The notes under the pieces: model-generated | The model's database searches: none | Told to the model about the DNA's origin: nothing | What the model saw: only the letters and a program-made list of their open reading frames with translations | NCBI GenBank assembly: GCA_041694815.1 | Contig: JBGFSC010000024.1 | Coordinates: forward strand, 1 to 34,970 | Length of the DNA stretch: 34,970 nt | Source of the DNA: Elusimicrobiota bacterium | Lineage (GTDB): Bacteria; Elusimicrobiota; Elusimicrobia; UBA1565; JACRDR01 | Direction: 5' to 3' | Made by a program: the position numbers and the translations under genes | In this document: positions 11,880 through 32,980 of the stretch, in pieces | Layout of the letters: each line of letters starts with the position of its first letter | Numbering within the stretch: the stretch's first letter is position 1

Positions 11880-14210
11880 ATGGCGCCGGCGGTGTTCATC
11901 GCAGCGCTGTTCTTAAAGGCCTCTCTGGCCCAGGAGAGCCCCGAATTGGCCTTGCTCCAGCGGCGCATGAACGCGGACCGGCCCCTCGCGGCCCCTTGGG
12001 TCCCGGAAACCGGCCGCTGGAACGCCGAGATGCTCCAATTCGGCAGAGCCCGGCTCCGAAGCCAGTTGGAGCCGTTGGAGGAGGCCCATCACGTCGCGCG
12101 CTGCCGGATGATGGCCGATTTGCTGGGACGCCGTTTCCAGGAAGATCAATGGAGCAGCGAGCCCGGCTTGGAGCAGCATCTGTCCGCGGAGGCCGGGCGT
12201 CGCGCGGCTTCCGGCAAGGACGGCGAATGCGGAAATACCCACACGGTGCTCCAGCTCGTCGACTGCAAGACCCGGCGGCGCGCCCAGGCCTTGCGAGAGG
12301 CCCAAACGGCTGTGGCGGCTTTCTCTAGGGAAAGCCTGCGGATCGAGGAGGAAAACCGGCTCTGCTTGGAGGACCTGCGCCTCTTGGACCGGCTGGAATC
12401 GGCGGCGCTTCGCCGCCTGGCGTCCCTCTATATCGAGATACAGCGCGACAAGCTCCGCCTCCAAGGGGAAGCCATCGACGCGCGCTCGGCCGCCTCCAAG
12501 GATTTCATCGACGAGCTAGGCCGCTGGGAGCTGGAATCGGAGACCAGGGCGCGATACCTGATCCAAGGCTCGAAGCTGCGCGCCAGGATCAAGCGCTTGG
12601 AGCGCGGTTTGGGCAGCATAAAGGAAGGGGATTCGTTGAGCCCGTGGCTGAATGATATCCGCTCCTTGGATTCGGAATACGAGCTCTACACGCAATTGCC
12701 CCGCCTGGCCGCCAAGGCCCGGGAGCAGCGCGGGCTGAGTTTCCGAGGGTGGAGAGGAGGATCGAAAGCGATATCCAGGGTTTCCAGGCTTTTTGGCGCC
12801 GATTTAAGGCAAGGCTATCTGCGAGACTCCGGCCGCGTGGAACGATACCAGGAGCTTTTCCCGCGAGTCGCCGAAAGGCTCGCCGCCGGGGATTTCAGCG
12901 GCGCTCGAAGCTTGCTTATCAGCTCGGACCCTTCGGCGTTCTTCACCCATTGGAGGCGTTTTCTCTCGGCGCGAGGGCCCGTCAACGACGACGATCGGCT
13001 ACATGCGGCCTGTTCCAAAATGGCGGCCTCCATCGCCCGCTCCCTCGCCGAGCAATTCTGGGCGAGCCACGGGGCGCGATTGGCTTTTTGGTCCGCCGCC
13101 TTGGCGCTGTCCGGCCCGGCAGCCGCGTTGGGCGCGCAAAGGCTTTCTGGCGCCGCCGAGGGGCTCTCAACCCTCTGGCGGGTCCGCCGGTTCGGCCGTC
13201 CCGCGGGTTTTCTCATGGGTGCGCTCGCCAAGGCCTCGGCTTTAAGCGCGGCGCGACTGGCGAATGTCGGCGGGAAGTGGAGTCCCGTCGCTGCCTACGC
13301 CGGGGCCGCCGGGGGCTTTTCGGGCGCCTTCGGCGCCGCACGGCATGTTTGGGAAGAAGGCCGGCGGGCCCATCCTATCCACGCGAAGGTCTCCGAGGCG
13401 GCTTCCAGAGCGGCCAAGGAGGGGCTTCGCTGCTCCTTGAGCTCCTGGCGCCCCATGATTCTCGTGGCCGCCATCCCGCTACAGATCGTTCAGGGAACGC
13501 CCTTCGAGAGGATTTTTCGCCTCGCGGGCGCCGGCGGGCGCTTGGAATTGGCGGCCAAGCACGAGGCGCTGCGGCTTGCCGCGGGCCGCCTCGCGCGCGA
13601 GACGAGCCTGCGCCTGGACTCACGGGACGGGGGCGATTTGGAGCGGCGGCTGCGCCGAGCCGCTCAAGCGGAGCATGGCGCCAAGGAGCTGTATTTGAAG
13701 TGGCTGATTCCTAATAAGGGACCGAAGAGTTTGGTAAGATTGCCGCGTGAGACTGGCAACCGTGCGGGACCCCTCTTCGAGCCTGCACGGCAGGCTGGCC
13801 GTGCTGGCCCCGGATGGGCGCCGGGCGACGCTCGCCCCCTCCTGGCCCGGGGGACCTCCCACGCCCACTCTACTCTCCGCGCTGGAAAATTGGCGCTCGG
13901 CACTGCCGGCCTTGCGAAAGGCGGAATCGGATATCAAGGCCGGCCGCGCGTCCGCCTTCGCCCTAGGCCTCGGGAGTCTCATGGCCCCGCTGCCGCGCAG
14001 CTACGCCTTTCTCGACGGGAGCGCCTACCTCGAGCACGTGCGCAGGGCCAGGAAGGCGCGCGCAGCCGAGCCTCCGCCGGAGCTGGAAACCGTCCCCCTC
14101 ATGTATCAGGGCGCGAGCGCCCCGCTTTCAGGCCCGCGCGAGCCGATGCGCCTGCCCGAGGGAGGGCTCGGCCTCGACTTCGAGGCCGAAATCGTCGTCT
14201 TCCTGGATGA
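11880..14210 (+). CDS. Secreted/membrane hypothetical protein; genuine coding probably ends near 13710 and the rest is read-through
   Basis: Signal-peptide-like start with TACGCT-N6-ATG. Helical N-half, then Gly/Ala-rich hydrophobic segments. The last ~155 codons overlap the FAH gene out of frame and are Arg/Pro-rich like shadow ORFs. Confidence 0.5.
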   Translation: MAPAVFIAALFLKASLAQESPELALLQRRMNADRPLAAPWVPETGRWNAEMLQFGRARLRSQLEPLEEAHHVARCRMMADLLGRRFQEDQWSSEPGLEQHLSAEAGRRAASGKDGECGNTHTVLQLVDCKTRRRAQALREAQTAVAAFSRESLRIEEENRLCLEDLRLLDRLESAALRRLASLYIEIQRDKLRLQGEAIDARSAASKDFIDELGRWELESETRARYLIQGSKLRARIKRLERGLGSIKEGDSLSPWLNDIRSLDSEYELYTQLPRLAAKAREQRGLSFRGWRGGSKAISRVSRLFGADLRQGYLRDSGRVERYQELFPRVAERLAAGDFSGARSLLISSDPSAFFTHWRRFLSARGPVNDDDRLHAACSKMAASIARSLAEQFWASHGARLAFWSAALALSGPAAALGAQRLSGAAEGLSTLWRVRRFGRPAGFLMGALAKASALSAARLANVGGKWSPVAAYAGAAGGFSGAFGAARHVWEEGRRAHPIHAKVSEAASRAAKEGLRCSLSSWRPMILVAAIPLQIVQGTPFERIFRLAGAGGRLELAAKHEALRLAAGRLARETSLRLDSRDGGDLERRLRRAAQAEHGAKELYLKWLIPNKGPKSLVRLPRETGNRAGPLFEPARQAGRAGPGWAPGDARPLLARGTSHAHSTLRAGKLALGTAGLAKGGIGYQGRPRVRLRPRPRESHGPAAAQLRLSRRERLPRARAQGQEGARSRASAGAGNRPPHVSGRERPAFRPARADAPARGRARPRLRGRNRRLPG

Positions 14211-14733
14211 AGTCCCGCTCGGCACGCGAGCCAGGGACGCCGCGAGGCATATCAAGCTAATCGGACTGATGAACGATGTCACGCTGAGGGAGTTGTTGCC
14301 CCGCGAGGCGGCCACAGGATTTGGCTTCGTGCAAAGCAAGCCTCCCTCGGCCTTCGCCCCCTTCGTCGTGACACCGCAAGAGCTGGGCCCAGCCTGGCGC
14401 GACGGGCGGCCGGATCTCAAGCTGCTCCTTCGCCTCAACGGCCGCCCGTTCGGAGACCTGAGCGCCTTCCCGATGCATTTCTCCTTCCCCGAGCTGATCG
14501 CGCACGCGGCGCGCACGCGCGCGCTTGCCGCCGGCACCATACTCGGCGGCGGCACCGTATCGAATCCGGGGGTCAGGAACGGTTTTGCCTGCATCGCCGA
14601 ACGGCGCATGGTCGAGCGGATCGCGGCCGGCGCGGCCAGCACGCCCTTTCTTAAACGGGGCGACCGGGTGGAAATCGAGGCGGTGTTGGGCGGGCGAAGT
14701 GTTTTTGGGAAGATAGAACAGAGAGTAGTATAA
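13747..14733 (+). CDS. Fumarylacetoacetate hydrolase family protein
   Basis: Motifs LDGSAYLEHV, PLMYQG, LDFEAEI, LMNDVTLR, GFGFVQSKP, GTILGGGTVSN, FLKRGDRVEIE. GTG start preceded by TGG-TAAGAT-N6. Confidence 0.92.
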   Translation: MRLATVRDPSSSLHGRLAVLAPDGRRATLAPSWPGGPPTPTLLSALENWRSALPALRKAESDIKAGRASAFALGLGSLMAPLPRSYAFLDGSAYLEHVRRARKARAAEPPPELETVPLMYQGASAPLSGPREPMRLPEGGLGLDFEAEIVVFLDEVPLGTRARDAARHIKLIGLMNDVTLRELLPREAATGFGFVQSKPPSAFAPFVVTPQELGPAWRDGRPDLKLLLRLNGRPFGDLSAFPMHFSFPELIAHAARTRALAAGTILGGGTVSNPGVRNGFACIAERRMVERIAAGAASTPFLKRGDRVEIEAVLGGRSVFGKIEQRVV

Positions 14734-14813
14734 ACGGCGGTTTTTACGCGCCTCGGGCGCGTGACTCGACGCGCTAACGCGCGTCGAGTTCGAGGTTTAG
14801 CGCGAGTATTCCG
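14732..14813. repeat. REP/MITE-like multi-hairpin element between convergent genes (copy A)
   Basis: Hairpins ACGCGC..GCGCGT and ACTCGACGCGC-TAAC-GCGCGTCGAGT (14764-14789). The first 31 nt match the reverse complement of 26165-26195 with 1 mismatch. CGCGAGTATTCCG is shared with 26126-26138. Confidence 0.8.
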
Positions 14814-14819
14814 GGTGCT

Positions 14820-16901
14820 CTACGCCTTCGCGATCTCCGCCGGCGCCTTGACCGGTATCGAGAAGATGAACTTGGCCCCTTGTCCCGGGGGGGACTCCGC
14901 CCAGATTTTTCCCTTGTGCAGCTCCACGAAACGACGGCAGATGGTCAGGCCCAGGCCAAAGCCCTTTTCCTTGCGCCCTAGGTCGAGCTGCTTGAACTTC
15001 TCGAATACGAATTGCAGCTTGTCGGCCGGTATGCCGGGGCCCGTATCGGACACGGAGACCACGGCCTCGGAAGTAGATTGTTCCACGTGGACGGTGATGC
15101 GTCCTCCCTTCGGGGTGAACTTGATCGCGTTGCCGATGAGATTGGAGATGACGCGCTGTATCTTGCGGGGCTCGGCCGGGATGGGGAAGAAGGTGCCGTG
15201 GTGGGTCAGCTCCAAGGCGATGTTCTTGCTTTGGGCCGGCAGGCCCTGCAGCACGAGCGCGTTCTGGGCCGTGGTCACGATGTTCGTGGGCTCCGGGGCC
15301 AGCTCGTATTTGCCGGCCTCCAACTTCGAGAGGTCCAGCACGTCCTCGAGCAGGTTCGTCAGCTCGCATTCCGCGCTCTGGCCCATGCGGTAGTACTGCT
15401 CCTCCTTGGGGGTCAGGGTGCGCCCCGACTTGGAGAGCTCCAAGACCATCTTGATCGTCCCGACGGGATTGCGCAAGTCGTGGATCACCGAGTTGAAGAA
15501 GTCCTCCTTCATCTGGTTGAGCTGCTTTTCGAGGCTGACGTCGTGAAATAGCAGCAGGATGCCGGATTGCTTCTTCCCCGCGGAGACCAGGGTGCCTAGG
15601 ATCTTCAGGTAGCGCGTCTCGGCCTGTCCCGCGCCGGCGACGGTGGTCTCGGCTTGGGCCCATCGCTTATCCCGGCGCAGCAGGGTCTGCGCGCAGCCGA
15701 CGACGTTGGGATCCCGGATGATGTCGGCGATGGCGGTGTTGGGCGCGATCACCGGGGTCCGACCGTGGCCCAGCAGCGCGAACACGGAGGGATTGGCGAA
15801 GAGGATGCGCCCCTGGAGATCGGCCATCAAGATGCCCTCGGGGATGGTCTGCACCAGGGCGTCGACCTTGGCTTTCTCTTCGATCACCTTCTCGACCTGC
15901 AGGTCCTGATAAGTCTTGAGCTGCTGCATCATGTGATTGAAGCGGCGAGCCAGCTCCCGCAGCTCGGGCCAGCCGCTCTCGCGCACCGGGACGTTGAAGA
16001 CGTTCGCGGCCGCCCGGCTGGACCCTTCGATGAGGTCCGACAAGGGGGTCACGATCTGCGCCGAGATCCTGCTCGCGGAGATAGCGGAGGCGGCGGCCAG
16101 CAGGCAAAAGAGCAGGGCGGCGCTCCAAAGAACGCCCTCGGCCTCCAGATAGGCCTCCTGGCGAGGCTGGACGCTGGCCAGGGTCCAGCGGAGCGGCTTG
16201 GACCGGGCGTAGGCGCCGATCCACTTCGCGCCGTCCTCCGATTTGAACTCGAGCCATCCCTCGCTCCCCTCCTCGGGGAGCGGCAATCGGGCCGGCACGG
16301 AATCCGCCATGAGCGGGAATGGCCGCCCCTGCGCGTTTACGAGCACGATGCGGCCGGATTTGCCGACCTTCTGGGCGTTCATCGTTTTCCAGAGCTTTTC
16401 CAAATTGATCCCGGCGTAGAGGAGACGGCCTTCCTTCAAGGGGTAGGCCACGGGAAGTATCGGCAGGCCGACGATCTCCGTCACCGGCCCCATGGCCGGC
16501 TCGCCTTCCTGGCGCACCGACGCGGCGATGGGACTCCAGACGGCTTGCGGGGTCTGGGCCGGGAATATCCTGGAATCGGCGATGCGCACGCCTTCTACGC
16601 CCTCGGGGCCGACGACGGACAACAGGCTGAACTCGGGCTTGGCGGCGGCCGTGACCTGGAGCAGGCGCAGCAGCAGCGGGGAATTGGGCTCGAGGCGCTG
16701 GGCATCGGGCACGAAGGAGAATAGCCCGTTGAGCTCCCGGGCGAAATCGTCGAGCGTCGCGACGTTGTTTTTGACGATCTGCTGGTGGTAATGCTGTACG
16801 TTCTTGCGGGAGACGCGCGCCACGCGCAGGATCAAGAAGCTCATGCTCGCCATGGCCACGGCGGTCCACCAGATCAAGGTGATGAAGAAGCGCCTAAACA
16901 T
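14820..16901 (-). CDS. Sensor histidine kinase (TM-Cache-like-TM-HAMP-PAS-HisKA-HATPase_c)
   Basis: H-box IHDLRNP, N-box NLIGNAIKF, G1 DTGPGI, G2 GFGLGL, PAS start LVQTIPEGIL, two TMs. Confidence 0.93.
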   Translation of the reverse strand: MFRRFFITLIWWTAVAMASMSFLILRVARVSRKNVQHYHQQIVKNNVATLDDFARELNGLFSFVPDAQRLEPNSPLLLRLLQVTAAAKPEFSLLSVVGPEGVEGVRIADSRIFPAQTPQAVWSPIAASVRQEGEPAMGPVTEIVGLPILPVAYPLKEGRLLYAGINLEKLWKTMNAQKVGKSGRIVLVNAQGRPFPLMADSVPARLPLPEEGSEGWLEFKSEDGAKWIGAYARSKPLRWTLASVQPRQEAYLEAEGVLWSAALLFCLLAAASAISASRISAQIVTPLSDLIEGSSRAAANVFNVPVRESGWPELRELARRFNHMMQQLKTYQDLQVEKVIEEKAKVDALVQTIPEGILMADLQGRILFANPSVFALLGHGRTPVIAPNTAIADIIRDPNVVGCAQTLLRRDKRWAQAETTVAGAGQAETRYLKILGTLVSAGKKQSGILLLFHDVSLEKQLNQMKEDFFNSVIHDLRNPVGTIKMVLELSKSGRTLTPKEEQYYRMGQSAECELTNLLEDVLDLSKLEAGKYELAPEPTNIVTTAQNALVLQGLPAQSKNIALELTHHGTFFPIPAEPRKIQRVISNLIGNAIKFTPKGGRITVHVEQSTSEAVVSVSDTGPGIPADKLQFVFEKFKQLDLGRKEKGFGLGLTICRRFVELHKGKIWAESPPGQGAKFIFSIPVKAPAEIAKA

Positions 16902-19233
16902 GAGGCAGGATCAGCTCCGCGCGGCCTCCGTTTTCGTTGCCCAGCACGAGGCGCCCCCCGAACCCCTCCGCGATTTTCCTGGCCGCCGCCAGCCCAATCC
17001 CGGGGCGCGAGGCCGTGATTTCGCGCAGGGGACGCGACTCCTCCAGCAGCAGCGCCGGCGGAAAGCCGCGCCCGCTGTCATGGATGCGCAAGCGGATGGC
17101 CGCCTCTGTCTCCACCCGCGCGAGGCTGACGCGCAAGCTGCCCCCGGCCGGCATCGCCTCGTAGGCGTTTTTGAGCAGTTGATACACCGCCAGCCGCAGG
17201 CGTCCCGCCTGGACGCGGATCATTGGCAGGGAGGGGGAGAATTGCCGAGTGAGGGCGATGCGCCGTTGTTTGAACGCAGCCTCCCAAGGAACTAGCGCCG
17301 ACTCGACGAGCGACGCAGCGGAGGCGGGCTCGGCCGGGTCCGCGGGGCTAAAGAGCTCGGATAAGGTCCTCAAGCGATCATGCACGCCCGAGAGCCTCGA
17401 CAACGCTGGCGCGGCGGCGCTCCGGGAAGCGGTCGGAAGGACGCCGGCGACCCTCTTTAGGTCGGAGAGGCTTCGCTGCACTCGCGCGAGCAAGGGCTTA
17501 AGCAACGCCGCGACGTCGGCCTCCGTCGCGTTCTCCTCGAGGCGGCGCAGGCATTCCTCGTGCGCCTCATGCTCTTTCGCCAGGCACTCGCGTAGCCGGT
17601 CGATTTCGCCCTGGGATTCCTGGAGGCGCCGTAGCCCGGCGGCCAGTTGCCGCCGAGCGGCCTCAGCCTCCAGGCGGACGCCGCCAAGACCCCCCAATTG
17701 CTTCTCCAGCGACGCGGCGTTCGTTTCCAGCGCGAGAATACGTTCCTGTGCTAAGGCCAGTTCCGCCTCGAGGCGCTGCCGGCGGGCCGAGTTGACCTCC
17801 AGCCTCTCCTCGAGCTCGCGCAGCCTTTCTTGCTGCGACTTCCTCTGCTCCAACGAGAGGCGGAGCTCCTCCTTGAGCCCCTCCTGGGCCCGCAACGCCC
17901 CGGCCAGCGCTTCCTCGAGGGAGGGGAGCCGGGCTTCGAGGTCTTGCAATTTCCTCGCGGTTTGACGCAGTTCCAGCTCGAGTCTTTCCTTTTCCTCGGA
18001 GAGCTGCCCGAGCTGCCGCGCCTGGAATTGGGCGGCTTGACCCAGTTCCGATCGGTGGAGTTCGAGGGTTTGAGCCAGCTCCTTTTCCTTAAGCTCGAGG
18101 GCGGAGGAAATTTTCTGGAACTGCAAGGCCGCGGCGTCAAGCCGGACACGTAAGGACTGCGACTCTTCCTCGAGGGCCTTTCGGCCTTCCTGGGCTTCTC
18201 CCAGGGCCTTTTGGAGCGCGGCCTGTTCTCGGAGTTGGCGCTGGGCCTCCTGCCGGAGCTTCTCTTCACGGGCGCGCTGGGACTTACGCTCCCGCTCCAA
18301 CTCTTCCGAATGCTCGATGGCCGCGCTTGCCAGGGTCGCCTGAAGTTTCTCAAGCTCGGCGCGTGAGATCTCCAACGCCGCGCGAAGGCCGCTGATCTCG
18401 GAGGATAGCCGGCCCCGCGCCTGCTGGGCCCTTTCCAGCTCGGATTTGAGCCCTTCGTTCTCCTGCAGGCGGGCGGCCGCGGCCGATCGCGCGGCCCGGA
18501 GCTGGTCCTCGAGGCTTTCCCGCGTCCGGTCCCACCGGCGCAGCTCTTCCTGCATGCGGCTGGCGCGGAGCTCATCGTCTTGGGACTTAAGCTGCGCCTG
18601 ATCCCAATCGGCGCTCAGTTCGCGTTTTCGGGATTCATTTAAATCGCGCCCCAGGCGCTCTTTTTCCGCGCGCAATGCCGCCGCTTCGGCCTGCGCCGCG
18701 GAGATGGAATCTTGGAGCGAGCGATTTTCCGCCTCCAGCCTCTGGCAGCGTTCCTGGAGAGGTGAAAATTCGACGGACATCCGCTTTTTTTCCTCGAGAA
18801 GCCGGATCGATTCCGATTGGAGCCTCAGGATTTCCTGCGCCAGAAGCGCCTGTTCCTGTTCGGCGCCCTCGTTTTTTTCCCTAGGCCGGAGCAGTATCCT
18901 CTTTAATTCCTCCAAGAGGCTTTGGAACTCGAAGACGTTCTTGAGCCCCGAGGCCGAGGCGCGGGCCTCGAGCTTCGGCAGGGCTTCCTCCGTGAAGAGC
19001 AGCCAACGCCCCTCCATACGGCGGCGGGCTTCCTCCAGCTCGAGCTCCCGTATTTGAAGCCGCTTCGCCAGGGCCTTGAGCCGGGAGATCTCGGCGCGGA
19101 TGGACGCGTCGTCCGCCGGACCGGAGGGCATCCCCAATAGGGCTTCCTGGAGGGCCATGAGGAAGGCGCTCAAGGCGGGAAGATCCGATTCCCCGGTGTT
19201 TTCGACCCTGGGAAGGGGAAGTTTCTCTTCCAT
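16894..19233 (-). CDS. Long coiled-coil protein with C-terminal HATPase_c domain and degenerate (His-less) DHp region
   Basis: About 550 aa of E/Q/R/L heptads, then QLLKNAYEAM, IHDSGRGF, GIGLAAARKI. No H-box visible. Confidence 0.85.
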   Translation of the reverse strand: MEEKLPLPRVENTGESDLPALSAFLMALQEALLGMPSGPADDASIRAEISRLKALAKRLQIRELELEEARRRMEGRWLLFTEEALPKLEARASASGLKNVFEFQSLLEELKRILLRPREKNEGAEQEQALLAQEILRLQSESIRLLEEKKRMSVEFSPLQERCQRLEAENRSLQDSISAAQAEAAALRAEKERLGRDLNESRKRELSADWDQAQLKSQDDELRASRMQEELRRWDRTRESLEDQLRAARSAAAARLQENEGLKSELERAQQARGRLSSEISGLRAALEISRAELEKLQATLASAAIEHSEELERERKSQRAREEKLRQEAQRQLREQAALQKALGEAQEGRKALEEESQSLRVRLDAAALQFQKISSALELKEKELAQTLELHRSELGQAAQFQARQLGQLSEEKERLELELRQTARKLQDLEARLPSLEEALAGALRAQEGLKEELRLSLEQRKSQQERLRELEERLEVNSARRQRLEAELALAQERILALETNAASLEKQLGGLGGVRLEAEAARRQLAAGLRRLQESQGEIDRLRECLAKEHEAHEECLRRLEENATEADVAALLKPLLARVQRSLSDLKRVAGVLPTASRSAAAPALSRLSGVHDRLRTLSELFSPADPAEPASAASLVESALVPWEAAFKQRRIALTRQFSPSLPMIRVQAGRLRLAVYQLLKNAYEAMPAGGSLRVSLARVETEAAIRLRIHDSGRGFPPALLLEESRPLREITASRPGIGLAAARKIAEGFGGRLVLGNENGGRAELILPHV

Positions 19234-19243
19234 AATGGCGCGC

Positions 19244-20785
19244 TTAAATGACTTCGGTCGTCCTGGCCGCCTTGATATTCAATTGGCCTTGATCGGCCAA
19301 CGCCAAGGCCTGCGAAAGTATCTTGGAGCGGGCCTCGAGAACCTTCTCCTTGGGCTGGGCAAGCTCGAAGGATTCTTGAAAAGTCGATCTCATGCCGGCC
19401 GGAAATAGCGAAGTTACGCGCTCCGCGAACTCCTGATCGGCGCCCCTCAGCGCGGTGGCCCATACCTGTATCGGCAGCAGGAAGGCGAGTTTCCGGAGGT
19501 CCTCTACCTTCATCGCCGCCAGGTCCTCGAAGGTCACCAGAGAGTTCTGCACCTCCTGGCTGGCCTGCGCGTCCACGCGCGAGAGGTCGCCGAGAATGAT
19601 TTCGCGCTCCTGAGGCCCGAGCCGGCTGAGGATGAGACCCAGCTTGTCGGTCCCCTTGAGGCGGGTCTCCACTTGGGTGCGCAGGTGGCCTTCTAGTATG
19701 TCGATGCGTTCCGGGTCGGCCTGGCGAAGCCGGACCATCGCCTTGGACACCTCCAATTGGACCTGCGGTGACATGTTCGAGAAAAGAAGGGTGCCCAGCT
19801 CGGTCTGCCGGTCCGCCAGCCAGCTGAAAAGCAGCGCTAAATCCTCCGGCGGCTCCCCCTCGAGTATTTGCGCCACCTCCTGGGCGGGGTGCCCCGCGAG
19901 GAAGCCGAAGCGCTCCTGGGCTTCCAGGGCGAGGGTCGGCGTGGCAGCCGCCTCGGTCGTGTCCAAGGTCGGGGGGCCCTCGGCGCCGAGCATTTCCGGC
20001 TCGGCGGCCGGAGGCATCTCGGGAGCTTGCTGGGGCATTTGCTGGCGGTGCAGCAGGGCTTGCGCGAGGGTGCGCATGCCCCAGACGAACAGGACGCCGA
20101 GGACGAGCCCCGTCGCCAGTAGGCCGACGACGATCATGGAATGGCTGAGCGCGGTCTTGAAGATGTCCGGAGAGAGCAGGAGCCTCTTCCACATGGGGGT
20201 CAGCGAGGCGCGTACCAACACGATGCTGTCTCCGCGCAGCACGTTGAGCCGCAGCATGTCGGCGAGTACCTTGCGCACCGCTTCGGCCTGGGTCTGCGGT
20301 ATGGCCGTGTCGACGAGCAGGGAGACATTGATCTTGTTGACCTGGAAGTTGGAGCGCCGGGATTCCTGCTGGTCGCGCTGGAAAATCGTATTGTTTTTTT
20401 CCTGAACGTAACGGTAGGACTTATCCATCAATTCGGATGGCACGTAATAGGGTGCGTAGCCGGGCATGGCATCCCTTTCCATACGCGTAGTGCTTTGTTG
20501 GGCAAATCCTGGCGCCCCGACGACTCCCTCCTGCTCTGATGTCGCGTTTTGGCCGGGCTTGTCTATGGGTGTTTGTATATCGGTGCTGGTTTTCGTTTCG
20601 CTGCGCTCTCCTTCCACCGTGATCAGGACCTTGGCACGACCCGGTCCCAGCAGCTGCTCGAGCAGGGCGGAGGAATCTTCCACGAGTCTTGCGGCCAATT
20701 CCGTTTCCTCGACCGAGACGGCGGCGGCGGAATAGGGGAGAAATAAAAAAGAGAACAGAAATATGGATAAAACACGCCTTCCCAT
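19244..20785 (-). CDS. Fusion of a FliF C-terminal (RBM3/beta-collar-like) ring domain, a TM and FliG middle/C-terminal domains
   Basis: ATG 20785 with GGAGGA RBS and signal peptide. FliF_C-like LLEQLLGPGRAKVLITVE...INVSLLVD...RGDSIVL. TM at MIVVGLLATGLVLGVLFVWG. FliG-like EGEPPEDLALL (cf. EHPQ), LVTFEDL (cf. MFxFEDL), WATALRGAD. Confidence 0.8.
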   Translation of the reverse strand: MGRRVLSIFLFSFLFLPYSAAAVSVEETELAARLVEDSSALLEQLLGPGRAKVLITVEGERSETKTSTDIQTPIDKPGQNATSEQEGVVGAPGFAQQSTTRMERDAMPGYAPYYVPSELMDKSYRYVQEKNNTIFQRDQQESRRSNFQVNKINVSLLVDTAIPQTQAEAVRKVLADMLRLNVLRGDSIVLVRASLTPMWKRLLLSPDIFKTALSHSMIVVGLLATGLVLGVLFVWGMRTLAQALLHRQQMPQQAPEMPPAAEPEMLGAEGPPTLDTTEAAATPTLALEAQERFGFLAGHPAQEVAQILEGEPPEDLALLFSWLADRQTELGTLLFSNMSPQVQLEVSKAMVRLRQADPERIDILEGHLRTQVETRLKGTDKLGLILSRLGPQEREIILGDLSRVDAQASQEVQNSLVTFEDLAAMKVEDLRKLAFLLPIQVWATALRGADQEFAERVTSLFPAGMRSTFQESFELAQPKEKVLEARSKILSQALALADQGQLNIKAARTTEVI

Positions 20786-20807
20786 GATGTCCTCCAAGTG
20801 CGCCAAT

Positions 20808-20836
20808 ACTATAAAGGGATTTCCCAGGGCGCGCAA
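20808..20836 (-). promoter_or_regulatory. Sigma70-type promoter for the FliF-FliG fusion transcription unit
   Basis: TTGCGC (20836-20831), 17 bp, TATAGT (20813-20808). Confidence 0.6.
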
Positions 20837-20844
20837 TATCTAAA

Positions 20845-22167
20845 TTATTTCAAGGGAAGGAGGAAGAAAAACCGGCTTCCCTTGCCGGCATCGGATTCGA
20901 CGCCGATGCGACCCTCATGCAATTCGATGATCGATTTGGAGATCGCCAGGCCCAGGCCGCTGCCGGAGGCCTTGAGCTGGTTTGGCACGCGCTGGAAGGG
21001 GGCGAAAATGCGGCTTAAGGCGTCCTGAGGGATGCCGACGCCGGAATCCCTAACGCTGCATTCGATGAATTTCCTTCCCTCGGTATCCTTGCGGTGTGCC
21101 TCCACGGTGATCGACCCGCCGCGGGGAGTGAATTTAATCGCGTTCGAAACGAGATTGGCGATGACCTGGGTGATCAGGTCCGGATCCAACTTCATCGCGG
21201 GCGGCAAATCCCCGTTGGACAGCAGCTGGAGGCTTATGCCCGCCTCCTTCGCCTTCGGCTCGAAGAACAAGACGGCATCCTCGATGAGCGCCTTGACATT
21301 CGTCGCCTGGGCGTGCATGTCGAGCTTTCCCCGCTCGATCTTGGCCATCTCGAGTACGTTGGTGACGAAATGCCCGAGGCGCGTGGCGTTGGACTGGATG
21401 CGCCGGAGCATGTCGAGCTCGGTCTGGCTGCGGCCCTCGTTCTCCGAAAGGATGAGGCGCACGCAGCTCTCGATGGAGGCCAGCGGGGACCTGAGCTCAT
21501 GCGTGACGGAGGCGATGAAAGTCTTCTTCATGGCCTCTAGCTCCTGTAACTTTTGGGACATCACGTTGATGTTGGAGGCCAGGCGGCCGATTTCGTCCTG
21601 GCCCTTGACGCTGGTGGTCACCCCGAACTTCCCTTCGCCGATGGCCTCTAGGGTCTTGCCGAGCGAGCCGATGCGCCTTGACAAGCTTAGGCTCAGGACC
21701 AGGGCCAAAAGCAGCGCGAACGGCAATACGGTATAAAGGCTCTTTTGCATGTTGCGCAAAGCCATTTCGCCGGCGGTTCGGCGTTTGGCCTGCAGATAGG
21801 AGTTGGAAAAGGCGATGGTGATGGAGCCCTTATCGGTGGATACGCTCTTGATGAACACGTCGGCGGCGGCCCGTTTCGGTCTGGGTTCGACTCGCGTCGT
21901 CGCCCCGTTGCGCGTTAGCTCGAAATAGGCCAGTTCCGGGCGGTTGGCCAGCAGCGCCTTGAGCCCGTCGATGAGCATGAGCGGATCCCTGGAGAACTCG
22001 GCCTCTTCCTCCAATCGCCGCGCGTCTTGGGCGATTCGTTCGATGCTTTCGTTTTCGGCCTCGCTGAGGGAATCTTCATGTAGCTTAAGATAATTGACCG
22101 CGACCAGGGCGGCCGCGGCCAGGGCGGTCGACAGGAAGCCGAAAGCCAGCTTGGCTCGTATACTCAT
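20845..22167 (-). CDS. Sensor histidine kinase (TM-periplasmic-TM-HAMP-HisKA-HATPase_c)
   Basis: Start at MSIRAKLAFG (22167). HAMP DEIGRLA, H-box THELRSPL, NLVSNAIKF, DSGVGI, GSGLGL. Confidence 0.93.
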   Translation of the reverse strand: MSIRAKLAFGFLSTALAAAALVAVNYLKLHEDSLSEAENESIERIAQDARRLEEEAEFSRDPLMLIDGLKALLANRPELAYFELTRNGATTRVEPRPKRAAADVFIKSVSTDKGSITIAFSNSYLQAKRRTAGEMALRNMQKSLYTVLPFALLLALVLSLSLSRRIGSLGKTLEAIGEGKFGVTTSVKGQDEIGRLASNINVMSQKLQELEAMKKTFIASVTHELRSPLASIESCVRLILSENEGRSQTELDMLRRIQSNATRLGHFVTNVLEMAKIERGKLDMHAQATNVKALIEDAVLFFEPKAKEAGISLQLLSNGDLPPAMKLDPDLITQVIANLVSNAIKFTPRGGSITVEAHRKDTEGRKFIECSVRDSGVGIPQDALSRIFAPFQRVPNQLKASGSGLGLAISKSIIELHEGRIGVESDAGKGSRFFFLLPLK

Positions 22168-22171
22168 GCCA

Positions 22172-24139
22172 TCATTGGCCTCGCCGCACGCGCTGCAGGG
22201 CTTTCTGGGCCTGGGCGTTGCCTGGATCGAGGGCCAGGATGCGTTGGAAAGCCGCCGTGGCGAGCACGTTCTCGCCGCGCGCGTAATGCTCCATGCCTTG
22301 CTGGTAGAGCTTCTCGATGAGTCGCGGATCGGCGGGGCCCTGGGGTATGGAGGGCTCGACCGCGATAGCTCCCGGTGCCTCGACTCGTCGGACGGGCCGT
22401 TCGGGGAGCGGCGGCTGCTGGGCCGGCTGCTGCGGCGCCGCACCAAGCGCCTTCTGAGCCTCGGCGATATAGCGCTCGAGCGCCGCCCGCTCGACCGGGG
22501 CCGTTTCCATTTTCAGCGCCTGCGTCCAGATCGCGATGGCCTCGGGATAGTAGCGCATCATGTAGAAGGCGCTGCCCACCTGCTTGTAGGAGCGCACGTC
22601 GCCAGGCTCGATCTCCATGGCATCGCGCGCGTCGTCTAAAGCGTTCTGATAATTACGGCTGTCGAAGGCGGACTGCGAGGAGGCGTGCTTCTCCTCGAGC
22701 AGGTTGCGGCTGCCCGAGGGCCTCTCGGCTTGTATCTGCGTGGCATGCTCGAGGTTGTCCAAATACTTGGGGAGCTTGAGCTCCTTATGGTTGAGGCTGG
22801 CGGCGTAGGAGACAAGCAGCATGGCGCGGCGGTCCTTGCCGTAGGCGAAGGCGCGGCTGCCGTTGGCGATGGCCACCTGCCAGCGCTCCTGCGGGTCGCG
22901 AATCTCCGGGAAGCTCGCGGAGATGAGGTCCAGGCGCTTGGCCAGGGCCGCCAGGGCCGGATCCTCGGGAAGGCCGCTCATGATCCTCGTCAGTATCTGG
23001 TAGGCCATCAAGAACTCCCCGGCCTCGATCCTGTCCTTGACTCCCTGCAGCTCGGGCCGGTCCAGGTTGGCCGGGTTCGACAATTCGTTGGATTCGTATC
23101 CGAAGGGGGTCTTTCGCAGGTTCTGCATCTTGCTGACGAGCTCCTTGGAGAGCTGCTCCTCGCTCGTCATCGCGCCGAAGTGGAACGAGAGCCCCATCCG
23201 ATGAGTGCCCGCGGTGCCGCTAACGCCGGAGATCGGCATGAGGAAGGCGTAATCGGCCTGTATCTTGTTGATGATGTAGGAAAGGCCGATGCTGATCTGC
23301 CTAAATTCCCGGCTTCCGATGGCCAGGCCCGCCCGCACGCCGAGTGTCCCCAGATCGAAGGAGGGGAAAAAGCGCTCGCCGGCTAAGACCGCGTCCTGGT
23401 CCAGAGTCCCCTTCGGCGATTTCTGCATGCCGAGCTCGGCGGCCAGATTCATCCAGAGGCTCTTGAAGCCGAAACCAAGTTTGGTGCGCATCGGCAGCTT
23501 GTCGGTGCCGGCGAATCCCACGTCCGGCTGATTGAGATGGCTGACCGAGAGGGCGAAGGAATAGCGCCGCGGGGTCCGATAGAGCAGTCCGACATCGGTA
23601 TCGTAGGCCGTCTTGCTTTGGGAGCCGCTGAGCACGGGGTCCGGGATTCCCGATCGGACCTGATTGTTCAAGAAGGCGTTGCCGGCCTCATCGCCCGGCG
23701 CGAAGGATCGGTTGAGATGCTTGAAGTTCAAGCCGGCGAAAATATTACCCCATCCCTCCCGTTTGTAAAGGAGGCGGCCATAGGAGAGGGCTATCGTGCG
23801 TTCGTTGTAGATCGAATTGAGCTTGAAATCCTTCCATGCGAGGCCGAGAGTTCCCCAGCGACCCCGCTTGAGCGGATGGGCATAGGCGATGTCGGACTGG
23901 CCCAGGTTCGAGCTGTCGGCCAAGCCCATGTAAAATTGGGCGTAGGTCAAGCCCAGCTGCGGGCGCTCGAGAGTCGCCAATCCGGCCGGATTGTAATGAA
24001 TCGCGTAGACGTCGTCGGCGATCGCGGAGAAGGCGTTGCCCATTCCAGGCGCGCGCGCGCCGGCGCCCATATCCTCGAAGGCGGCCTCGGCCGCGCCGAC
24101 GGAACCGAGCAGGATGGCGGTCCAGAGCAGGCGCTTCAT
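22172..24139 (-). CDS. Outer-membrane beta-barrel (PorV/PorP-SprF/FadL-like) fused to C-terminal TPR repeats
   Basis: Signal peptide and N-terminal plug motif GAGARAPGMGNAFSAIADDVYAIHYNPAGL. Alternating beta strands end at THRMGLSFHFG, followed by TPR-like helices (e.g. AFQRILALDPGNAQAQKAL). Confidence 0.82.
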   Translation of the reverse strand: MKRLLWTAILLGSVGAAEAAFEDMGAGARAPGMGNAFSAIADDVYAIHYNPAGLATLERPQLGLTYAQFYMGLADSSNLGQSDIAYAHPLKRGRWGTLGLAWKDFKLNSIYNERTIALSYGRLLYKREGWGNIFAGLNFKHLNRSFAPGDEAGNAFLNNQVRSGIPDPVLSGSQSKTAYDTDVGLLYRTPRRYSFALSVSHLNQPDVGFAGTDKLPMRTKLGFGFKSLWMNLAAELGMQKSPKGTLDQDAVLAGERFFPSFDLGTLGVRAGLAIGSREFRQISIGLSYIINKIQADYAFLMPISGVSGTAGTHRMGLSFHFGAMTSEEQLSKELVSKMQNLRKTPFGYESNELSNPANLDRPELQGVKDRIEAGEFLMAYQILTRIMSGLPEDPALAALAKRLDLISASFPEIRDPQERWQVAIANGSRAFAYGKDRRAMLLVSYAASLNHKELKLPKYLDNLEHATQIQAERPSGSRNLLEEKHASSQSAFDSRNYQNALDDARDAMEIEPGDVRSYKQVGSAFYMMRYYPEAIAIWTQALKMETAPVERAALERYIAEAQKALGAAPQQPAQQPPLPERPVRRVEAPGAIAVEPSIPQGPADPRLIEKLYQQGMEHYARGENVLATAAFQRILALDPGNAQAQKALQRVRRGQ

Positions 24140-26217
24140 TTGATCACCACCACGGTGCCGTTATACACCTTGCCATCGCCCTCGAGCTGATAGATATAGA
24201 CCCCACCCGGGACGGCGTTGCCGTTCGCCTTCCCGTCCCAAATCATATGGAACTGGTCGGTTTGCGACAGGGTGGTCACGAGCCTGCCCTGCACGTCGAA
24301 GATCTTGCCCGAGATCGCGGAATCCTTGGGGTTATCAAAGGTGAACTGGATATTATCGTTGAGGCCGTCGCCGTTGGGGGTGAGGAACTTGTGCGAGAGC
24401 CCCGAAAGATCGAATTCGGTCGCCGATTGGCGGGTCACCGTCCGGAGCTGGTACTCTCCAACTACCTGGGTCGGGACGGTGACGAATTGGTTGAGCTTAT
24501 CCGCGTTTCCGTAGACCTTTACGTACTTGGCGCCATTGTTCCAGTACATGCCCGTTTGATCCGGGGTCGCCGCCGCCTGAGCCTTCACCGTGCCGTCCGG
24601 ATTCGTCTGATAGCTCAAACGGACGTAAACGATGTTGGAGAATTGGAAGGATTTGGGCCCCTCGGCCGCGTTTTGGGTGAGCAATTGGAAGTTGGCGTTG
24701 TTGAGGATGTTCGAGCCCGAGGCGGCGATCTGGCTGCTGGACCTAAGCCAGTAAGCGACGCTGGGGTCGTTGTCGAGCGATCCGAGGGCGCTCAAGGGGA
24801 TCAGCATATGGGAGCGTTGATCGGGCGCCAAAACCCATCCCGAACGGCTGTTTAAGTCGCGGATGATCGAGGAGTATGAGTTATCCGAGAGATTGGCCGC
24901 GGTGACGCGGTAATACGTGCCGGCGACGGGAGCCGGGTCGGTGTATTGCAAAGTGGAGCTCGAGACGGTAGCCAGAAGGGTCCAGTTCGGATTAGAAATA
25001 CCGGTCGATCGCCAGATGTGGAACCACTTGAGCTCGTCTTCGCTGGGATTGGAAGGGCTGGCGAAGGCCTGTCCGAAATCATACGCGACGGGGGCGGTCC
25101 AGGCCAGGGTGGCGCTTGAGGAGAACACGGAGAGGGAGAGGCGCAAAGGCGGCGTCGGGGGCGCGCCGCGGACGAGTAGGGAGGCCAATGCGGCCGCGGT
25201 GATCTCCTGATTGCCCGAATTGAGGCCGAAGAGCTGGTAATAATAAGTCGTCGCCACCGTGAGGGGCGAGTCGATGACGGAGGTCGAGCTCGTCGAAGTC
25301 AGGACGGTGAAGCCGCTTCCCGAATTCGTCGACCGGTAGAGGCGGTAGGCGACCGGGGTGCAGTTTCCAGGCACTCCGGCGGCCGCGTTCCAACTGAGAA
25401 GCCCTGATTTAAACCGGGGGACCGCGGTAAAGCCGCTTAATATCGAGCCGACTCCAGGGTATGAGGTGGTTGCGGAAAGCAGGGCCGCCGGAGAGAGATC
25501 CGCCTCCAAGGCCAGTATCGCGAAGTAGTAGGTGACGCCGTTTTGAAGTCCGGTCAGGGTCAGGGTCTGCGTGGTGCCTTGGACCGCGGGGGTGGGGGCG
25601 GCCGGAGTCACGCTTTGGGCCGAATAGAACAAGGTCTCGGAGGCGGCGGGGGAGAGGGCGGGGTCGGAGCTGAGCTTGATGAGATAGGATCTTGCCGCCG
25701 TCTGCGCCGCGTAGCCGTCGTTGCCGGGGGCGATCCAGCTTAGCGTGATCTGCGAGGCGACGCAGCCACTGACGCTGAAATTGCTGACCTGGCCGGGATA
25801 AAAGTAGATCGGGATCAGCCCGGAGCGCGCCAGAAAATTAGCGCTGGTTTGCGTGCTGGATCCGATTTCCCCGATGGTCGAGATGGATTGGAAGCTGTTG
25901 GAGTTTTGAGTGCCGCCCCCGGCGTCGATCGCCGAGCGTCCGTTCTTATACCCGCTGCTCGTCGAAACGAAGGCTTGGGCGGGGAGGGCGAGGGATAACA
26001 ACAGCAGGGCTAGGCTTGGGAGTGAGCTTTTACGCGCTTTGGGCGCGTGACTCGTCGCGTTTTGTTTTCGCGGTGCCAGGGATTGACTTTCGCCTAGGCG
26101 AAAGTCAATCCCTGGCACCAGTTTCGCGAGTATTCCGAACTTGGCACGCGTAGCGTGCCAAGCAACGCGCCCGAGGCGCGTAAAAGCCGCCGTTTCAGAC
26201 GGAGGGCCAAAAATCAC
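24136..26217 (-). CDS. Secreted Ser/Thr-rich FN3-repeat protein with gliding-motility-associated (T9SS type-B/CHU_C-like) C-terminal domain
   Basis: FN3 motifs ITLSWIAPG, LTGLQNGVTYYFAI, YRLYRST. CTD motifs FLTPNGDGLND, KIFDVQGRLV, WDGK, GVYIYQL. GTG start preceded by TATGTT-N6. Signal h-region SLALLLLSLALPAQA is displaced by an inserted element. Confidence 0.85.
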   Translation of the reverse strand: MIFGPPSETAAFTRLGRVAWHATRAKFGILAKLVPGIDFRLGESQSLAPRKQNATSHAPKARKSSLPSLALLLLSLALPAQAFVSTSSGYKNGRSAIDAGGGTQNSNSFQSISTIGEIGSSTQTSANFLARSGLIPIYFYPGQVSNFSVSGCVASQITLSWIAPGNDGYAAQTAARSYLIKLSSDPALSPAASETLFYSAQSVTPAAPTPAVQGTTQTLTLTGLQNGVTYYFAILALEADLSPAALLSATTSYPGVGSILSGFTAVPRFKSGLLSWNAAAGVPGNCTPVAYRLYRSTNSGSGFTVLTSTSSTSVIDSPLTVATTYYYQLFGLNSGNQEITAAALASLLVRGAPPTPPLRLSLSVFSSSATLAWTAPVAYDFGQAFASPSNPSEDELKWFHIWRSTGISNPNWTLLATVSSSTLQYTDPAPVAGTYYRVTAANLSDNSYSSIIRDLNSRSGWVLAPDQRSHMLIPLSALGSLDNDPSVAYWLRSSSQIAASGSNILNNANFQLLTQNAAEGPKSFQFSNIVYVRLSYQTNPDGTVKAQAAATPDQTGMYWNNGAKYVKVYGNADKLNQFVTVPTQVVGEYQLRTVTRQSATEFDLSGLSHKFLTPNGDGLNDNIQFTFDNPKDSAISGKIFDVQGRLVTTLSQTDQFHMIWDGKANGNAVPGGVYIYQLEGDGKVYNGTVVVIK
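26026..26195. repeat. MITE/REP-like composite element (copy B) with a central 48-bp perfect palindrome, inside the 5' end of a CDS
   Basis: 23-bp inverted ends (26026-26048 and 26165-26187, 2 mismatches). Palindrome GGTGCCAGGGATTGACTTTCGCCT|AGGCGAAAGTCAATCCCTGGCACC at 26072-26119. Confidence 0.88.
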
Positions 26218-26326
26218 CTTAAAAACATAACCGACTTAAGCGAAATTCTTGTTACGGGAGAACGAATTCTGCGCAACTTTGAGGCCTCAAAAAAGGCCTA
26301 AAAATAGAGGCTTTTTACGTGGTTTT

Positions 26327-27904: not shown

Positions 27905-29036
27905 TGCCGCTGAGTGTAGGGGCCTGCTGTTTCATTGTCAATGCCTTAAGCGCCTCCGCGTTAGCGCGGGCATCGGGGCCCAACACGAAGCGATGCAGGG
28001 ATGAGCGGCGCAGCAGGGAAACGGCGCTTGCAAGGCGTTTAAATCCTATCTGACCGAGCTTGGAGATGGTGGAAGGAGAAAATCCCAGCGTGTATTCGCT
28101 CATCTGCGCGATACCGACGCCGACGACCATATGCTCGAAAAGGGCCGCCAGGGCCTCCAGGGGCGAGGCCGTCTCGATGCGCGGCTCGGCGCCGCGTCGG
28201 CCGATGAGCAGCCAGCGAAGAGGGATATCCTCTCGAACCTTATGGGAGAAGAAGTCCAGATCGACCAATTTTTTCGGCCCGTAATGTTTTCGAACGAAAG
28301 GCCGAATCCAATCCTCCGGGACGTCGGAGAGATCCATGGATGGCTCCAGTCCCAGGCGCAGGGGAAAAGCCAGGACGCGGTCGCCGCGAAGGAGCGGCGT
28401 ATCCTCCGAGAGTATCCCGAACTCCCAGCGGCGGAGTAGCTCCAACGCGAGCGTGCTCTTGCCTCCACCCGAGGGCAGTAGCAATAGGCCTGCCTCCCCG
28501 CCGGCCTCAAATCCCAGGGCGTGGATTCGATGCATGCCGGCAAGGTCCAAGGCTTCGCCGGAGCGCGACAAGATCGCTAGATAAGCGAGCTCATGCAGTC
28601 GCGTCAAATTCTCGCAGTAAATGCTGCCTTTTTTTGCCTCATAATCGTAGTCGGCCGAGGCGTCGCCGTAATCGATCATGCGGACTTTGTTTTTCTGATA
28701 AACGCGGTAACGGCTGGTCTGAAATAATGGGCGCCCCGCGGCGGCCGCCGGCGCTTGGGTCCGATGTAATTCTAGAATGATGGCCGGGATGGCCCTCTGT
28801 TTTGACGGTGCCAGGGATTGACTTTCGCCTTGTTCTGATGGTGCCAGGGATTGACTTTCGCCTTGTTTTGATGGTGCCAGGGATTGACTTTCGCCTAGGC
28901 GAAAGTCAATCCCTGGCACCTTTGTAACGTTGATAACGAAATATTTAAAGTCCAGCGCCAGCGGTTGCAGTATCGCCGGGTCGGAGGCCAACACTTGAAC
29001 GCTCACTCCGTGGATGTCTAGATCCAATCGATTCAT
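27885..29036 (-). CDS. HPr-kinase-like P-loop protein carrying an in-frame palindrome/repeat insertion
   Basis: Start MNRLDLDIHG overlaps the GT2 stop (ATGA). HRIHA...GLLLLPSGGGKSTLA...LSED pattern typical of HprK-related kinases. Confidence 0.75.
   Translation of the reverse strand: MNRLDLDIHGVSVQVLASDPAILQPLALDFKYFVINVTKVPGIDFRLGESQSLAPSKQGESQSLAPSEQGESQSLAPSKQRAIPAIILELHRTQAPAAAAGRPLFQTSRYRVYQKNKVRMIDYGDASADYDYEAKKGSIYCENLTRLHELAYLAILSRSGEALDLAGMHRIHALGFEAGGEAGLLLLPSGGGKSTLALELLRRWEFGILSEDTPLLRGDRVLAFPLRLGLEPSMDLSDVPEDWIRPFVRKHYGPKKLVDLDFFSHKVREDIPLRWLLIGRRGAEPRIETASPLEALAALFEHMVVGVGIAQMSEYTLGFSPSTISKLGQIGFKRLASAVSLLRRSSLHRFVLGPDARANAEALKALTMKQQAPTLSGNGRSSP
28798..28920. repeat. Three 33-bp direct repeats ending in the same 48-bp palindrome (copy C), in frame
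   Basis: 24-bp core at 28807, 28840 and 28873, each preceded by TGTTYTGAY. Palindrome 28873-28920 is identical to 26072-26119. Confidence 0.92.
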
Positions 29037-32973: not shown

Positions 32974-32980
32974 GCCTTCT

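Follow-up and report, generated by a model that had tools for sequence, protein, structure and literature searches.

What a FliG-type protein does where no flagellum is encoded is the question raised by a locus of the phylum Elusimicrobiota, whose flagellum-less free-living members carry many motAB and fliG homologues of enigmatic role, according to Uzun et al. (10.1101/2022.07.08.499144). The locus lies on contig JBGFSC010000024.1, positions 1-34,970, of assembly GCA_041694815.1 from an Elusimicrobiota bacterium (Elusimicrobia; UBA1565; JACRDR01); this whole stretch of 34,970 nucleotides is called the window. An earlier note, made from the sequence alone, had described the product of the minus-strand gene at 19244..20785 as a single chain containing the third ring-building motif (RBM3) of FliF, a transmembrane (TM) segment, and the middle (M) and C-terminal (C) domains of FliG. 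This product is named P0001 here; G000 is the source genome, C-numbers are its contigs, other G-numbers are sampled genomes and L-numbers are related loci. Our answer, to which we give a probability of about 60%, is that P0001 is the rotor subunit of a non-flagellar ring driven by MotAB, which is coupled both to a carrier/adhesin module of the outer membrane and to signalling by histidine kinases, where ring formation, rotation and output are what we infer.

In P0001, a single membrane protein, the end of FliF that forms the ring is fused to the part of FliG that receives torque, and on this point Pfam, profile searches of PDB, hhalign, AlphaFold2 and Foldseek agree with the earlier note. The three Pfam models which that note had proposed as a check all score above their gathering cut-offs: YscJ_FliF_C on residues 42-191 (E 5.3e-9, 37.1 bits; cut-off 23.8), and FliG_M (E 1e-5, 26.1 bits; cut-off 25) and FliG_C (E 8.4e-16, 58.6 bits; cut-off 23.3) over the intervals given in Table 1. 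Using a 55-member family profile against PDB, matches were obtained to FliG-MC of T. maritima (1lkv, E 4.6e-50) and to residues 238-530 of Salmonella FliF (6scn, E 1.4e-13), and hhalign places P0001 26-235 on E. coli FliF 234-473 with a probability of 96% (E 4e-9). Matches by profile and by structure, the lack of which had been named beforehand as fatal to the proposal, were found to both FliF_C and FliG. The NCBIfam model TIGR00207 (fliG) aligns P0001 286-509 with its positions 105-333 of 338, at 52.6 bits against an equivalog cut-off of 226.7. As the alignment begins only at model position 105, FliG-N is missing from P0001, and the score far under the equivalog cut-off makes P0001 a relative, not an orthologue, of flagellar FliG. 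The only FliG_N match reaches 15.4 bits (cut-off 25) and overlaps the M domain. YscJ_FliF, the model of RBM1 and RBM2, which seat the export gate, has no match in P0001, where only about 25 residues precede RBM3. The apparent absence of RBM1/2 and FliG-N had been remarked in the earlier note, and YscJ_FliF finds nothing elsewhere in the genome either.

The AlphaFold2 model of P0001 has a mean predicted local distance difference test (pLDDT) score of 83.1. It consists of a helix (25-46), two long strands (51-73 and 135-159), a helix (164-177), a strand (187-193), the TM helix (206-249), a disordered stretch (252-288) and a helical part (294-509). The modelled order alpha-beta-beta-alpha-beta is that of an RBM, and the two strands of 23-25 residues correspond to the collar hairpin of FliF. 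Foldseek gives a probability of 1.00 both for FliG-MC chains and for chains of the FliF RBM3/S-ring. Confidence falls below a pLDDT of 50 at 83-106, 124-131 and 252-288. The FliF_C-like part had been described as carrying a long insert; the FliF_C assignment stands, while the insert is the normal variable tip between the collar strands, which FliF also has, since E. coli FliF is longer there in the hhalign comparison. Other features read from the sequence beforehand were recovered as well: hydropathy windows give a single hydrophobic TM segment, the linker is rich in Ala, Pro and Glu (A9, P8 and E6 among 41 residues), EPPED aligns with E. coli EHPQI (125-129), and LVTFEDL is present at 416-422. 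By homology to the FliF S-ring, the RBM3 domain of P0001 is inferred to form a ring. FliF rings contain about 33-34 subunits. A complex prediction with four copies of residues 22-205 scored 0.39 against a mark of 0.42, which speaks neither for nor against ring formation.

The N-terminal segment, MGRRVLSIFLFSFLFLPYSAAA/V, has the AAA end before V on which the earlier note had based an apparently cleavable signal peptide, and an AxxAxA motif is found in the consensus of 20 close relatives. Two relatives from other genomes, P0070 and P0092 (842-847 residues), carry HisKA and HATPase_c ahead of TM1-RBM3-TM2-FliG-MC, so that the rotor subunit itself includes a histidine kinase. Because the kinase is fused ahead of the first hydrophobic segment, this segment must span the membrane as TM1 in those relatives, which fixes the topology with RBM3 outside and FliG inside. 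Open frames of 821-956 residues that share the C-terminal part of the fusion occur in several sampled genomes. As for the gene start, an alternative in-frame TTG at 20836 would add 17 residues, but GGAGG, a Shine-Dalgarno sequence, lies 5 nt ahead of the ATG and the consensus of the 20 close relatives begins at this same point; together these indicate that the coordinates given for the gene in the earlier note are right.

The source genome holds no other sign of a flagellum among the parts that were searched. In the assembly (54 contigs, 97.8% complete), models for FHIPEP/FlhA, YscJ_FliF (FliF-N), FliMN_C, Flagellin_N and FliM had no match, and each of these models matched in four flagellated model genomes. 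The earlier statement that no type III export gate goes with this protein is borne out by the missing FHIPEP/FlhA. Four open reading frames (ORFs) bear FliG_C: the window copy, one on C38 (650 residues, with a TPR tail), one on C15 (514 residues) and one broken over two contigs (C34 end, C7 start). They have a common layout of signal peptide or TM1, periplasmic domain, TM, Pro/Glu linker and FliG-MC. The copies on C38, C15 and C7 are each followed by MotA and MotB, the latter with MotB_plug and OmpA domains. A fourth MotAB pair, at C29:14851-16268, has no fusion gene alongside; among the paralogous pairs it stands closest to that on C7 (47% and 52% identity), and it comes after two response regulators, one of OmpR type and the other a further protein with a receiver domain. 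The equivalents of MotA P173 and P222 are kept in all four MotA proteins, and that of MotB D32 in five of five. Four fusion genes are thus matched by four flagellar-type MotAB pairs, and only the rotor in the window and the stator on C29 have no such partner beside them. By this count argument alone, the C29 pair is a candidate stator for the window rotor.

To follow the family through the phylum, 301 Elusimicrobiota genomes were sampled; related genomes are included, and because the sampled genomes are kin, counts of co-occurrence overstate independence. The fusion family is present in 103 of the 301 genomes and in 64 of 98 genera, and it is nearly absent from two large families (1/88 and 0/89 genomes). 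MotA of the C7 type occurs in 111 genomes, all 103 fusion carriers among them, and two of the other eight are flagellated; co-occurrence with MotAB is strict. The same five genomes of the window's order that are without the fusion are also without C7-type MotA. FlhA occurs in six of the 301 genomes. Of the 923 representatives that an exhaustive search returned at E<=0.001, 153 also pass E<=1e-10 and 45 pass E<=1e-30, and a profile search of the word-indexed database gave nothing beyond the single-sequence search. All eight distant matches scanned have YscJ_FliF_C, FliG_M and FliG_C, and the organism names attached to matches (n=5) are all Elusimicrobia. One peptide pattern taken from a 20-row family alignment led to seven related loci. 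The two loci that lie outside the phylum were rejected, judged by ORF size: L022 (Rubricoccaceae) has a 569-residue and then a 339-residue ORF, sizes fitting separate FliF and FliG, and L023 (Latescibacterota) has only a 155-residue ORF. Look-alike clusters in the ESM Atlas hold proteins of 478-681 residues with FliG_C/FliG_M, some with YscJ_FliF_C in addition, and their commonest phylum is Pseudomonadota, Cloacimonadota, Bdellovibrionota or Bacteroidota; in a further cluster of 362 residues with FliG_M and YscJ_FliF_C it is Thermodesulfobacteriota. These clusters provide a lead that the FliF-FliG fusion extends beyond Elusimicrobiota.

A quick tree of the FliG part, with root not inferred, was built from seven canonical FliG sequences and 62 fusion rows, for which only 50 of the longer matches were used. 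In it the seven canonical FliG are split from the 62 fusions at a Shimodaira-Hasegawa-like approximate likelihood ratio (SH-aLRT) of 94, a split that is not starred, and the fusions form several deep groups. One might suppose that the gene is a decaying remnant of a lost flagellum without present function, and flagella are indeed rare enough in the phylum that loss has occurred. This explanation is close to refuted by the intact reading frame, the several paralogues per genome, the spread over genera with the same architecture at 20-50% identity, and the conserved synteny. The fusions also coexist with normal FliG (335-356 residues over three genomes) in flagellated members: G064 and G240 have a FliG ORF of 335-346 residues plus longer ORFs of fusion length, and G121 has a second FliG_C match in a 121-residue frame.

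Another explanation is that the window copy became a stator-less paralogue after the cluster was duplicated in this lineage, retaining the barrel, CTD and kinase genes without MotAB and serving as a regulatory or co-assembling subunit of the C34/C7 ring or forming an inactive ring. The C34/C7 copy is the nearest paralogue of P0001 (39% identity over the FliG part) and stands directly before a GHKL protein, MotA and MotB, and no stator genes accompany the window copy; the two fall into different sub-clades within one starred clade of 28 rows. We consider this improbable, as the unlinked C29 MotAB would give each rotor its own stator, and the window copy, the reference row of alignments A1 and A2, keeps the nearly invariant positions of the family.

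If P0001 is a rotor subunit, it could work as follows. The N-terminal segment would carry the RBM3/collar domain across the inner membrane, and these domains would assemble side by side into a ring like the FliF S-ring. The TM helix and linker would suspend one FliG-MC unit below each subunit, with the covalent link taking the place of the docking between the FliF tail and FliG-N. Peptidoglycan-anchored stators of the MotA5B2 type, encoded on C29 or C7, would draw on ion flow to exert force on the FliG C-domain and so rotate the ring. As export gate, rod, FliM and FliN are all lacking, the output should be something other than a filament, and its likeliest partner would be the outer-membrane barrel encoded in the same apparent operon, whose TPR arm could reach into the periplasm.

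The gene row around the fusion gene is tightly packed and all on the minus strand (Table 1). The gene for the fibronectin-III surface protein, which ends in a C-terminal sorting domain (CTD) for type IX secretion (T9SS), overlaps the barrel gene by 4 nt, and a few nt of the barrel gene overlap the likely start of the HAMP kinase gene. A gap of 59 nt separates the HAMP kinase gene from the fusion gene, and a gap of 10 nt the fusion gene from the coiled-coil GHKL gene, which in turn overlaps the second (dCache) kinase gene by 8 nt. In the listed HAMP kinase ORF (20845-22446), the initial 93 residues resemble read-through from the end of the barrel gene, and translation probably starts at the ATG at 22167, ahead of a TM segment. 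A promoter/terminator scan of 14000-28500 was uninformative, with 19 terminator-like sites against 14.5 +/- 3.8 in shuffles, and Rfam and tRNA scans of the window gave no match.

Table 1. Coordinates of P0001, its segments and the neighbouring genes in the window.
Feature	Residues	Window coordinates	Strand	Basis
FliF(RBM3)-TM-FliG(M/C) fusion gene (P0001)		19244..20785	minus	513 residues, ORF from ATG; Pfam domains above cut-offs
N-terminal hydrophobic segment ending AAA, signal peptide or TM1	1-22	20720..20785	minus	Sequence, hydropathy, AxxAxA in relatives' consensus
FliF RBM3 and beta-collar, periplasmic	25-195	20201..20713	minus	Pfam YscJ_FliF_C, PDB 6scn, hhalign, AlphaFold2, Foldseek
Variable low-confidence loop at collar-hairpin tip (the earlier note's insert)	74-134	20384..20566	minus	pLDDT
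TM helix, FliF TM2 equivalent	211-241	20063..20155	minus	Hydropathy, AlphaFold2, alignment with FliF TM2 region
Disordered Ala/Pro/Glu linker, replacing FliF C-tail and FliG-N	250-290	19916..20038	minus	Composition, pLDDT
FliG middle domain, EPPED (311-315) for EHPQ	302-374	19664..19882	minus	Pfam FliG_M, E. coli FliG alignment
FliG C-terminal domain, VTFEDL (417-422)	401-504	19274..19585	minus	Pfam FliG_C, alignments
Torque-helix equivalent	462-476	19358-19402	minus	E. coli FliG alignment
Sensor histidine kinase HAMP-HisKA-HATPase_c, directly upstream		20845..22167	minus	Pfam; listed ORF reaches 22446
Outer-membrane PorV/PorP(SprF)-like barrel with C-terminal TPR arm of ~330 residues		22172..24139	minus	Pfam PorP_SprF, TPR; AlphaFold2; Foldseek
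Fibronectin-III surface protein with T9SS type-B CTD		24136..26217	minus	Pfam fn3, CHU_C; TIGR04131
Cytoplasmic coiled-coil protein with GHKL ATPase domain, no HisKA, no TM		16894..19233	minus	Pfam
Sensor histidine kinase dCache-HAMP-PAS-HisKA-HATPase_c		14820..16901	minus	Pfam

The barrel protein scores 33.9 bits with Pfam PorP_SprF (cut-off 22.3), and 58.8 and 30.7 bits with the NCBIfam models PorV_fam (cut-off 90) and T9SS_PorP_fam (cut-off 90.55), both below cut-off. In its AlphaFold2 model (pLDDT 79.6), a signal peptide is followed by some 14 strands that form the barrel (60-320) and then by helical repeats (326-654), and Foldseek matches it to FadL and to the T9SS PorV chains 6h3i_F and 8gl6_F. 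The surface protein scores 38.9 bits with TIGR04131 (cut-off 35). The coiled-coil GHKL protein has two counterparts, at 26327-27904 of the window and at C7:830-2692; the three have neither HisKA nor TM, carry the GHKL ATPase domain at the C-terminus and share an N-terminal domain some 130 residues long. The one in the row and the one on C7 each directly follow a fusion gene, in what are close paralogous clusters, and these proteins may be partners of the ring.

Conservation of the cluster was followed in 19 unique loci (L037-L054 and L018; L019 and L020 duplicate L044 and L052). The CTD protein, the barrel-TPR protein and the HAMP kinase lie upstream of the fusion in 18 of the 19. The dCache kinase lies downstream in 17, L053 having none and L018 ending at a contig end. 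MotAB is frequently adjacent, being found within the stretch in 15 of the 19 loci, with L038 and L018 cut by contig ends. The order barrel-fusion-MotA also accompanies a distant paralogue type (about 22% identity) in seven genomes of another family (G035, G032, G020, G038, G041, G010 and G026), and it recurs in G064 and at C38 of the source genome.

Taken further, the barrel should carry the type-B-CTD surface protein, and the motor would move, load or tension this surface adhesin or its carrier, by analogy with SprF/SprB driven by GldLM; the ring would be controlled or read out by the pair of sensor kinases and by the coiled-coil GHKL protein. In Bacteroidota, SprF-type carriers are moved by a motor-driven track, according to Liu et al. 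(2025, PMC12635249), and the drive for gliding and T9SS is described there and in PMC9143113 as a GldLM motor, a GldK/N track, SprF/PorP carriers and type-B-CTD adhesins. The cluster type resembles that system in having a PorV/PorP-like barrel gene beside a type-B-CTD gene and, in the same cluster, an ion-driven motor of the 5:2 type. It differs in that the motor is MotAB with a FliF-FliG ring instead of GldLM, the barrel has a long TPR arm, and the phylum lies outside Bacteroidota. Elsewhere in the source genome are found a SprA/Sov-like ORF of 1829 residues on C19, whose 142.5 bits lie below the cut-off of 200, and ORFs with the formylglycine-generating enzyme (FGE)-sulfatase fold: in C19:1563-4973 and C19:8829-14318, three of these and the SprA-like ORF flank LptF/LptG, with a kinase-like ORF between the first two FGE ORFs. 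The GldL and GldM models had no match in the source genome, but they had none in the control genomes either. We know of no description of T9SS in Elusimicrobiota. Tentatively, and at somewhat less than even odds, we propose a third flagellar-core machine in free-living Elusimicrobiota, in which a FliF-FliG ring turned by MotAB drives PorV/PorP-like carriers with type-B-CTD adhesins, as a gliding or surface conveyor or for T9SS-like loading with GldLM replaced. As neither export gate nor rod would be needed, such a machine might in addition serve as a present-day model for a rotary engine that preceded the flagellum or ran parallel to it.

To examine the contacts that a driven rotor would use, E. 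coli FliG was aligned with 138 family rows (matches of at least 400 residues plus paralogues) by quick MAFFT; the sequences are divergent and the alignment is uncertain. In the EHPQR motif, E125 is kept in 111 rows and P127 in 86; H126 is replaced by P, S, K, D and others, Q128 is mostly E, and R160 is mostly A or S. With this degenerate motif, and with no FliM or FliM/N-C match in the genome, the switch role that the earlier note had added to the torque role finds no support. The kinases, the GHKL protein and the kinase fusions point instead to phospho-signalling in place of a FliM/FliN switch. At the torque helix and around it, some charges are kept: the K264 position is R or K in 89 of 138 rows, the D289 position is E in 41, and in 52 rows an Arg stands two residues past the R281 position. 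P0001 has R, G, E, S and P at the equivalents of K264, R281, D288, D289 and R297. The canonical pairs, as given in PMC12505986, are MotA R90 with FliG D288/289 and MotA E98 with FliG R281. The four MotA proteins of the source genome have F, K, K and R at the R90 position, so that the pair of MotA R90 with FliG D288/289 may survive.

A number of results weigh against a driven rotor tied to the barrel. The R281 position is Gly in 88 of 138 rows and Arg in only five, the R297 position is Pro in 69, and the D288 position, E or D in 76, is Q in 57; the stator-contacting charges, whose conservation the earlier note had proposed to check, are only partly kept. On the stator side, the E98 position of the four MotA proteins reads S/Q/Q/V in a quick alignment, so the canonical stator-rotor charge pairs are not all present, and the pair of MotA E98 with FliG R281 seems lost on both sides. 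No MotAB lies within 35 kb of the window copy, whose pairing with the C29 stator is a count argument only, and L037 and L053 have no MotAB in the stretch examined. The barrel can also part from the motor: L046 is without barrel and HAMP kinase, the barrel is retained in four of five genomes of the same order that lack both fusion and MotA, and in family f5 it is found at E<=1e-30 in 11 of 22 genomes against 19 of 22 for the fusion. The barrel is tied less tightly to the motor than MotAB is. Finally, the abundance of kinases and the kinase fusions fit a signalling platform equally well.

In such a platform, which the fusion would form or just be part of, a static ring would serve for signalling or as a scaffold: the kinases and the GHKL protein would dock on its FliG domains, and MotAB would be a peptidoglycan-anchored, ion-gated sensor or energiser in the manner of Tol/Ton force transduction, without sustained rotation. 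It would account for two sensor kinases and a GHKL protein within the same tight gene row, for HisKA and HATPase_c fused directly to the fusion protein in some relatives, and for the loss of the R281 and MotA E98 equivalents, and it suits a cell with neither FliM/FliN nor an axial structure to turn. We regard it as unlikely, because the stators belong to the flagellar type, possessing the MotB plug and the OmpA domain and conserving Asp32 and the MotA prolines, and the rotor parts that were retained are exactly the ring-forming and the stator-facing ones. Moreover, 5:2 stators of the MotAB family are known as rotary units, as stated in PMC12505986.

The preferred reading, a MotAB-driven ring, can be set against the systems already known. 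Flagellar FliF and FliG with MotAB or PomAB (Salmonella 6scn and 8umd; T. maritima 1lkv) likewise have RBM3 and beta-collar followed by a second TM, FliG M and C domains, one FliF to one FliG, and stators with MotB plug, OmpA, Asp32 and MotA Pro173/Pro222. Unlike them, P0001 is one polypeptide without RBM1/2, FliG-N and the FliF C-tail, the EHPQR motif of its family is degenerate with the R281 equivalent mostly Gly, it is encoded beside genes for an outer-membrane barrel, a CTD cargo protein and kinases, and the genome has no export gate, rod, FliM/FliN or flagellin.

Bergeron (2016, PMC4768692) described a FliF-FliG fusion in Chlamydiaceae. According to that paper, it is about 330 residues long, has RBM2 and one unassigned RBM-like stretch with a FliG-M-like region only, is without a SpoIIIAG-like RBM3, and occurs with FlhA and an injectisome. 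Like P0001, it is a natural single chain with a shortened FliF and a FliG-like cytoplasmic part in a non-flagellated bacterium; measured against that description, P0001 differs in having RBM3 and collar, no RBM2, both FliG M and C, and MotAB present without FlhA. Engineered FliF-FliG fusions of Salmonella and Vibrio still form MS-rings, according to PMC11481574 and 10.1101/2023.02.06.527414, and a covalent FliF-FliG link is compatible with MS-ring assembly; those fusions, as described there, join full-length FliF to full-length FliG, are laboratory-made and work in complete flagellar systems. A sporulation ring of the SpoIIIAG type (5wc3) was considered and rejected. It has an RBM3-type ring-building fold with an inserted beta hairpin, but the Foldseek match (E 0.015) is far weaker than that to FliF, SpoIIIAG has no FliG part, and the context is wrong, with no sporulation genes around P0001 in a diderm, non-sporulating phylum.

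In the literature covered, which left out subscription journals, no description of the RBM3-TM-FliG-MC architecture or of its cluster was found. If the reading is true, the ring part of FliF, the torque part of FliG and MotAB can operate on their own as a module, independently of type III export, rod, hook, filament and FliM/FliN, which would bear on the construction and evolution of the flagellar motor. The P0001 family is a concrete candidate explanation for the orphan fliG and motAB genes of flagellum-less Elusimicrobiota, and it would link a flagellar-type engine to T9SS-type surface carriers outside Bacteroidota. A single-chain rotor of this size would also lend itself, as a minimal object, to structural and single-molecule studies of how stator and rotor are coupled.

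Several further features of the window were recorded. The listed 5' end of the CTD-protein ORF runs through a repeat element (26025-26195) with a perfect palindrome of 48 nt (26072-26119). The palindromic element is found again at 28798-28920 and 14732-14792, in intergenic positions, and a 341-nt query around it gave 141 blastn matches across the contigs of the source genome, with no Rfam or tRNA match. The segment 2-14210 holds seven consecutive large ORFs of 472-936 residues, of which six lie on the plus and one on the minus strand; neither Pfam nor NCBIfam matched any of them, and two found no match in the 19 related loci. At the other end, three tandem ORFs of 157-169 residues (32500-33981), each with a retropepsin-like aspartyl protease domain, adjoin an 824-residue TPR protein and a family-2 glycosyltransferase.

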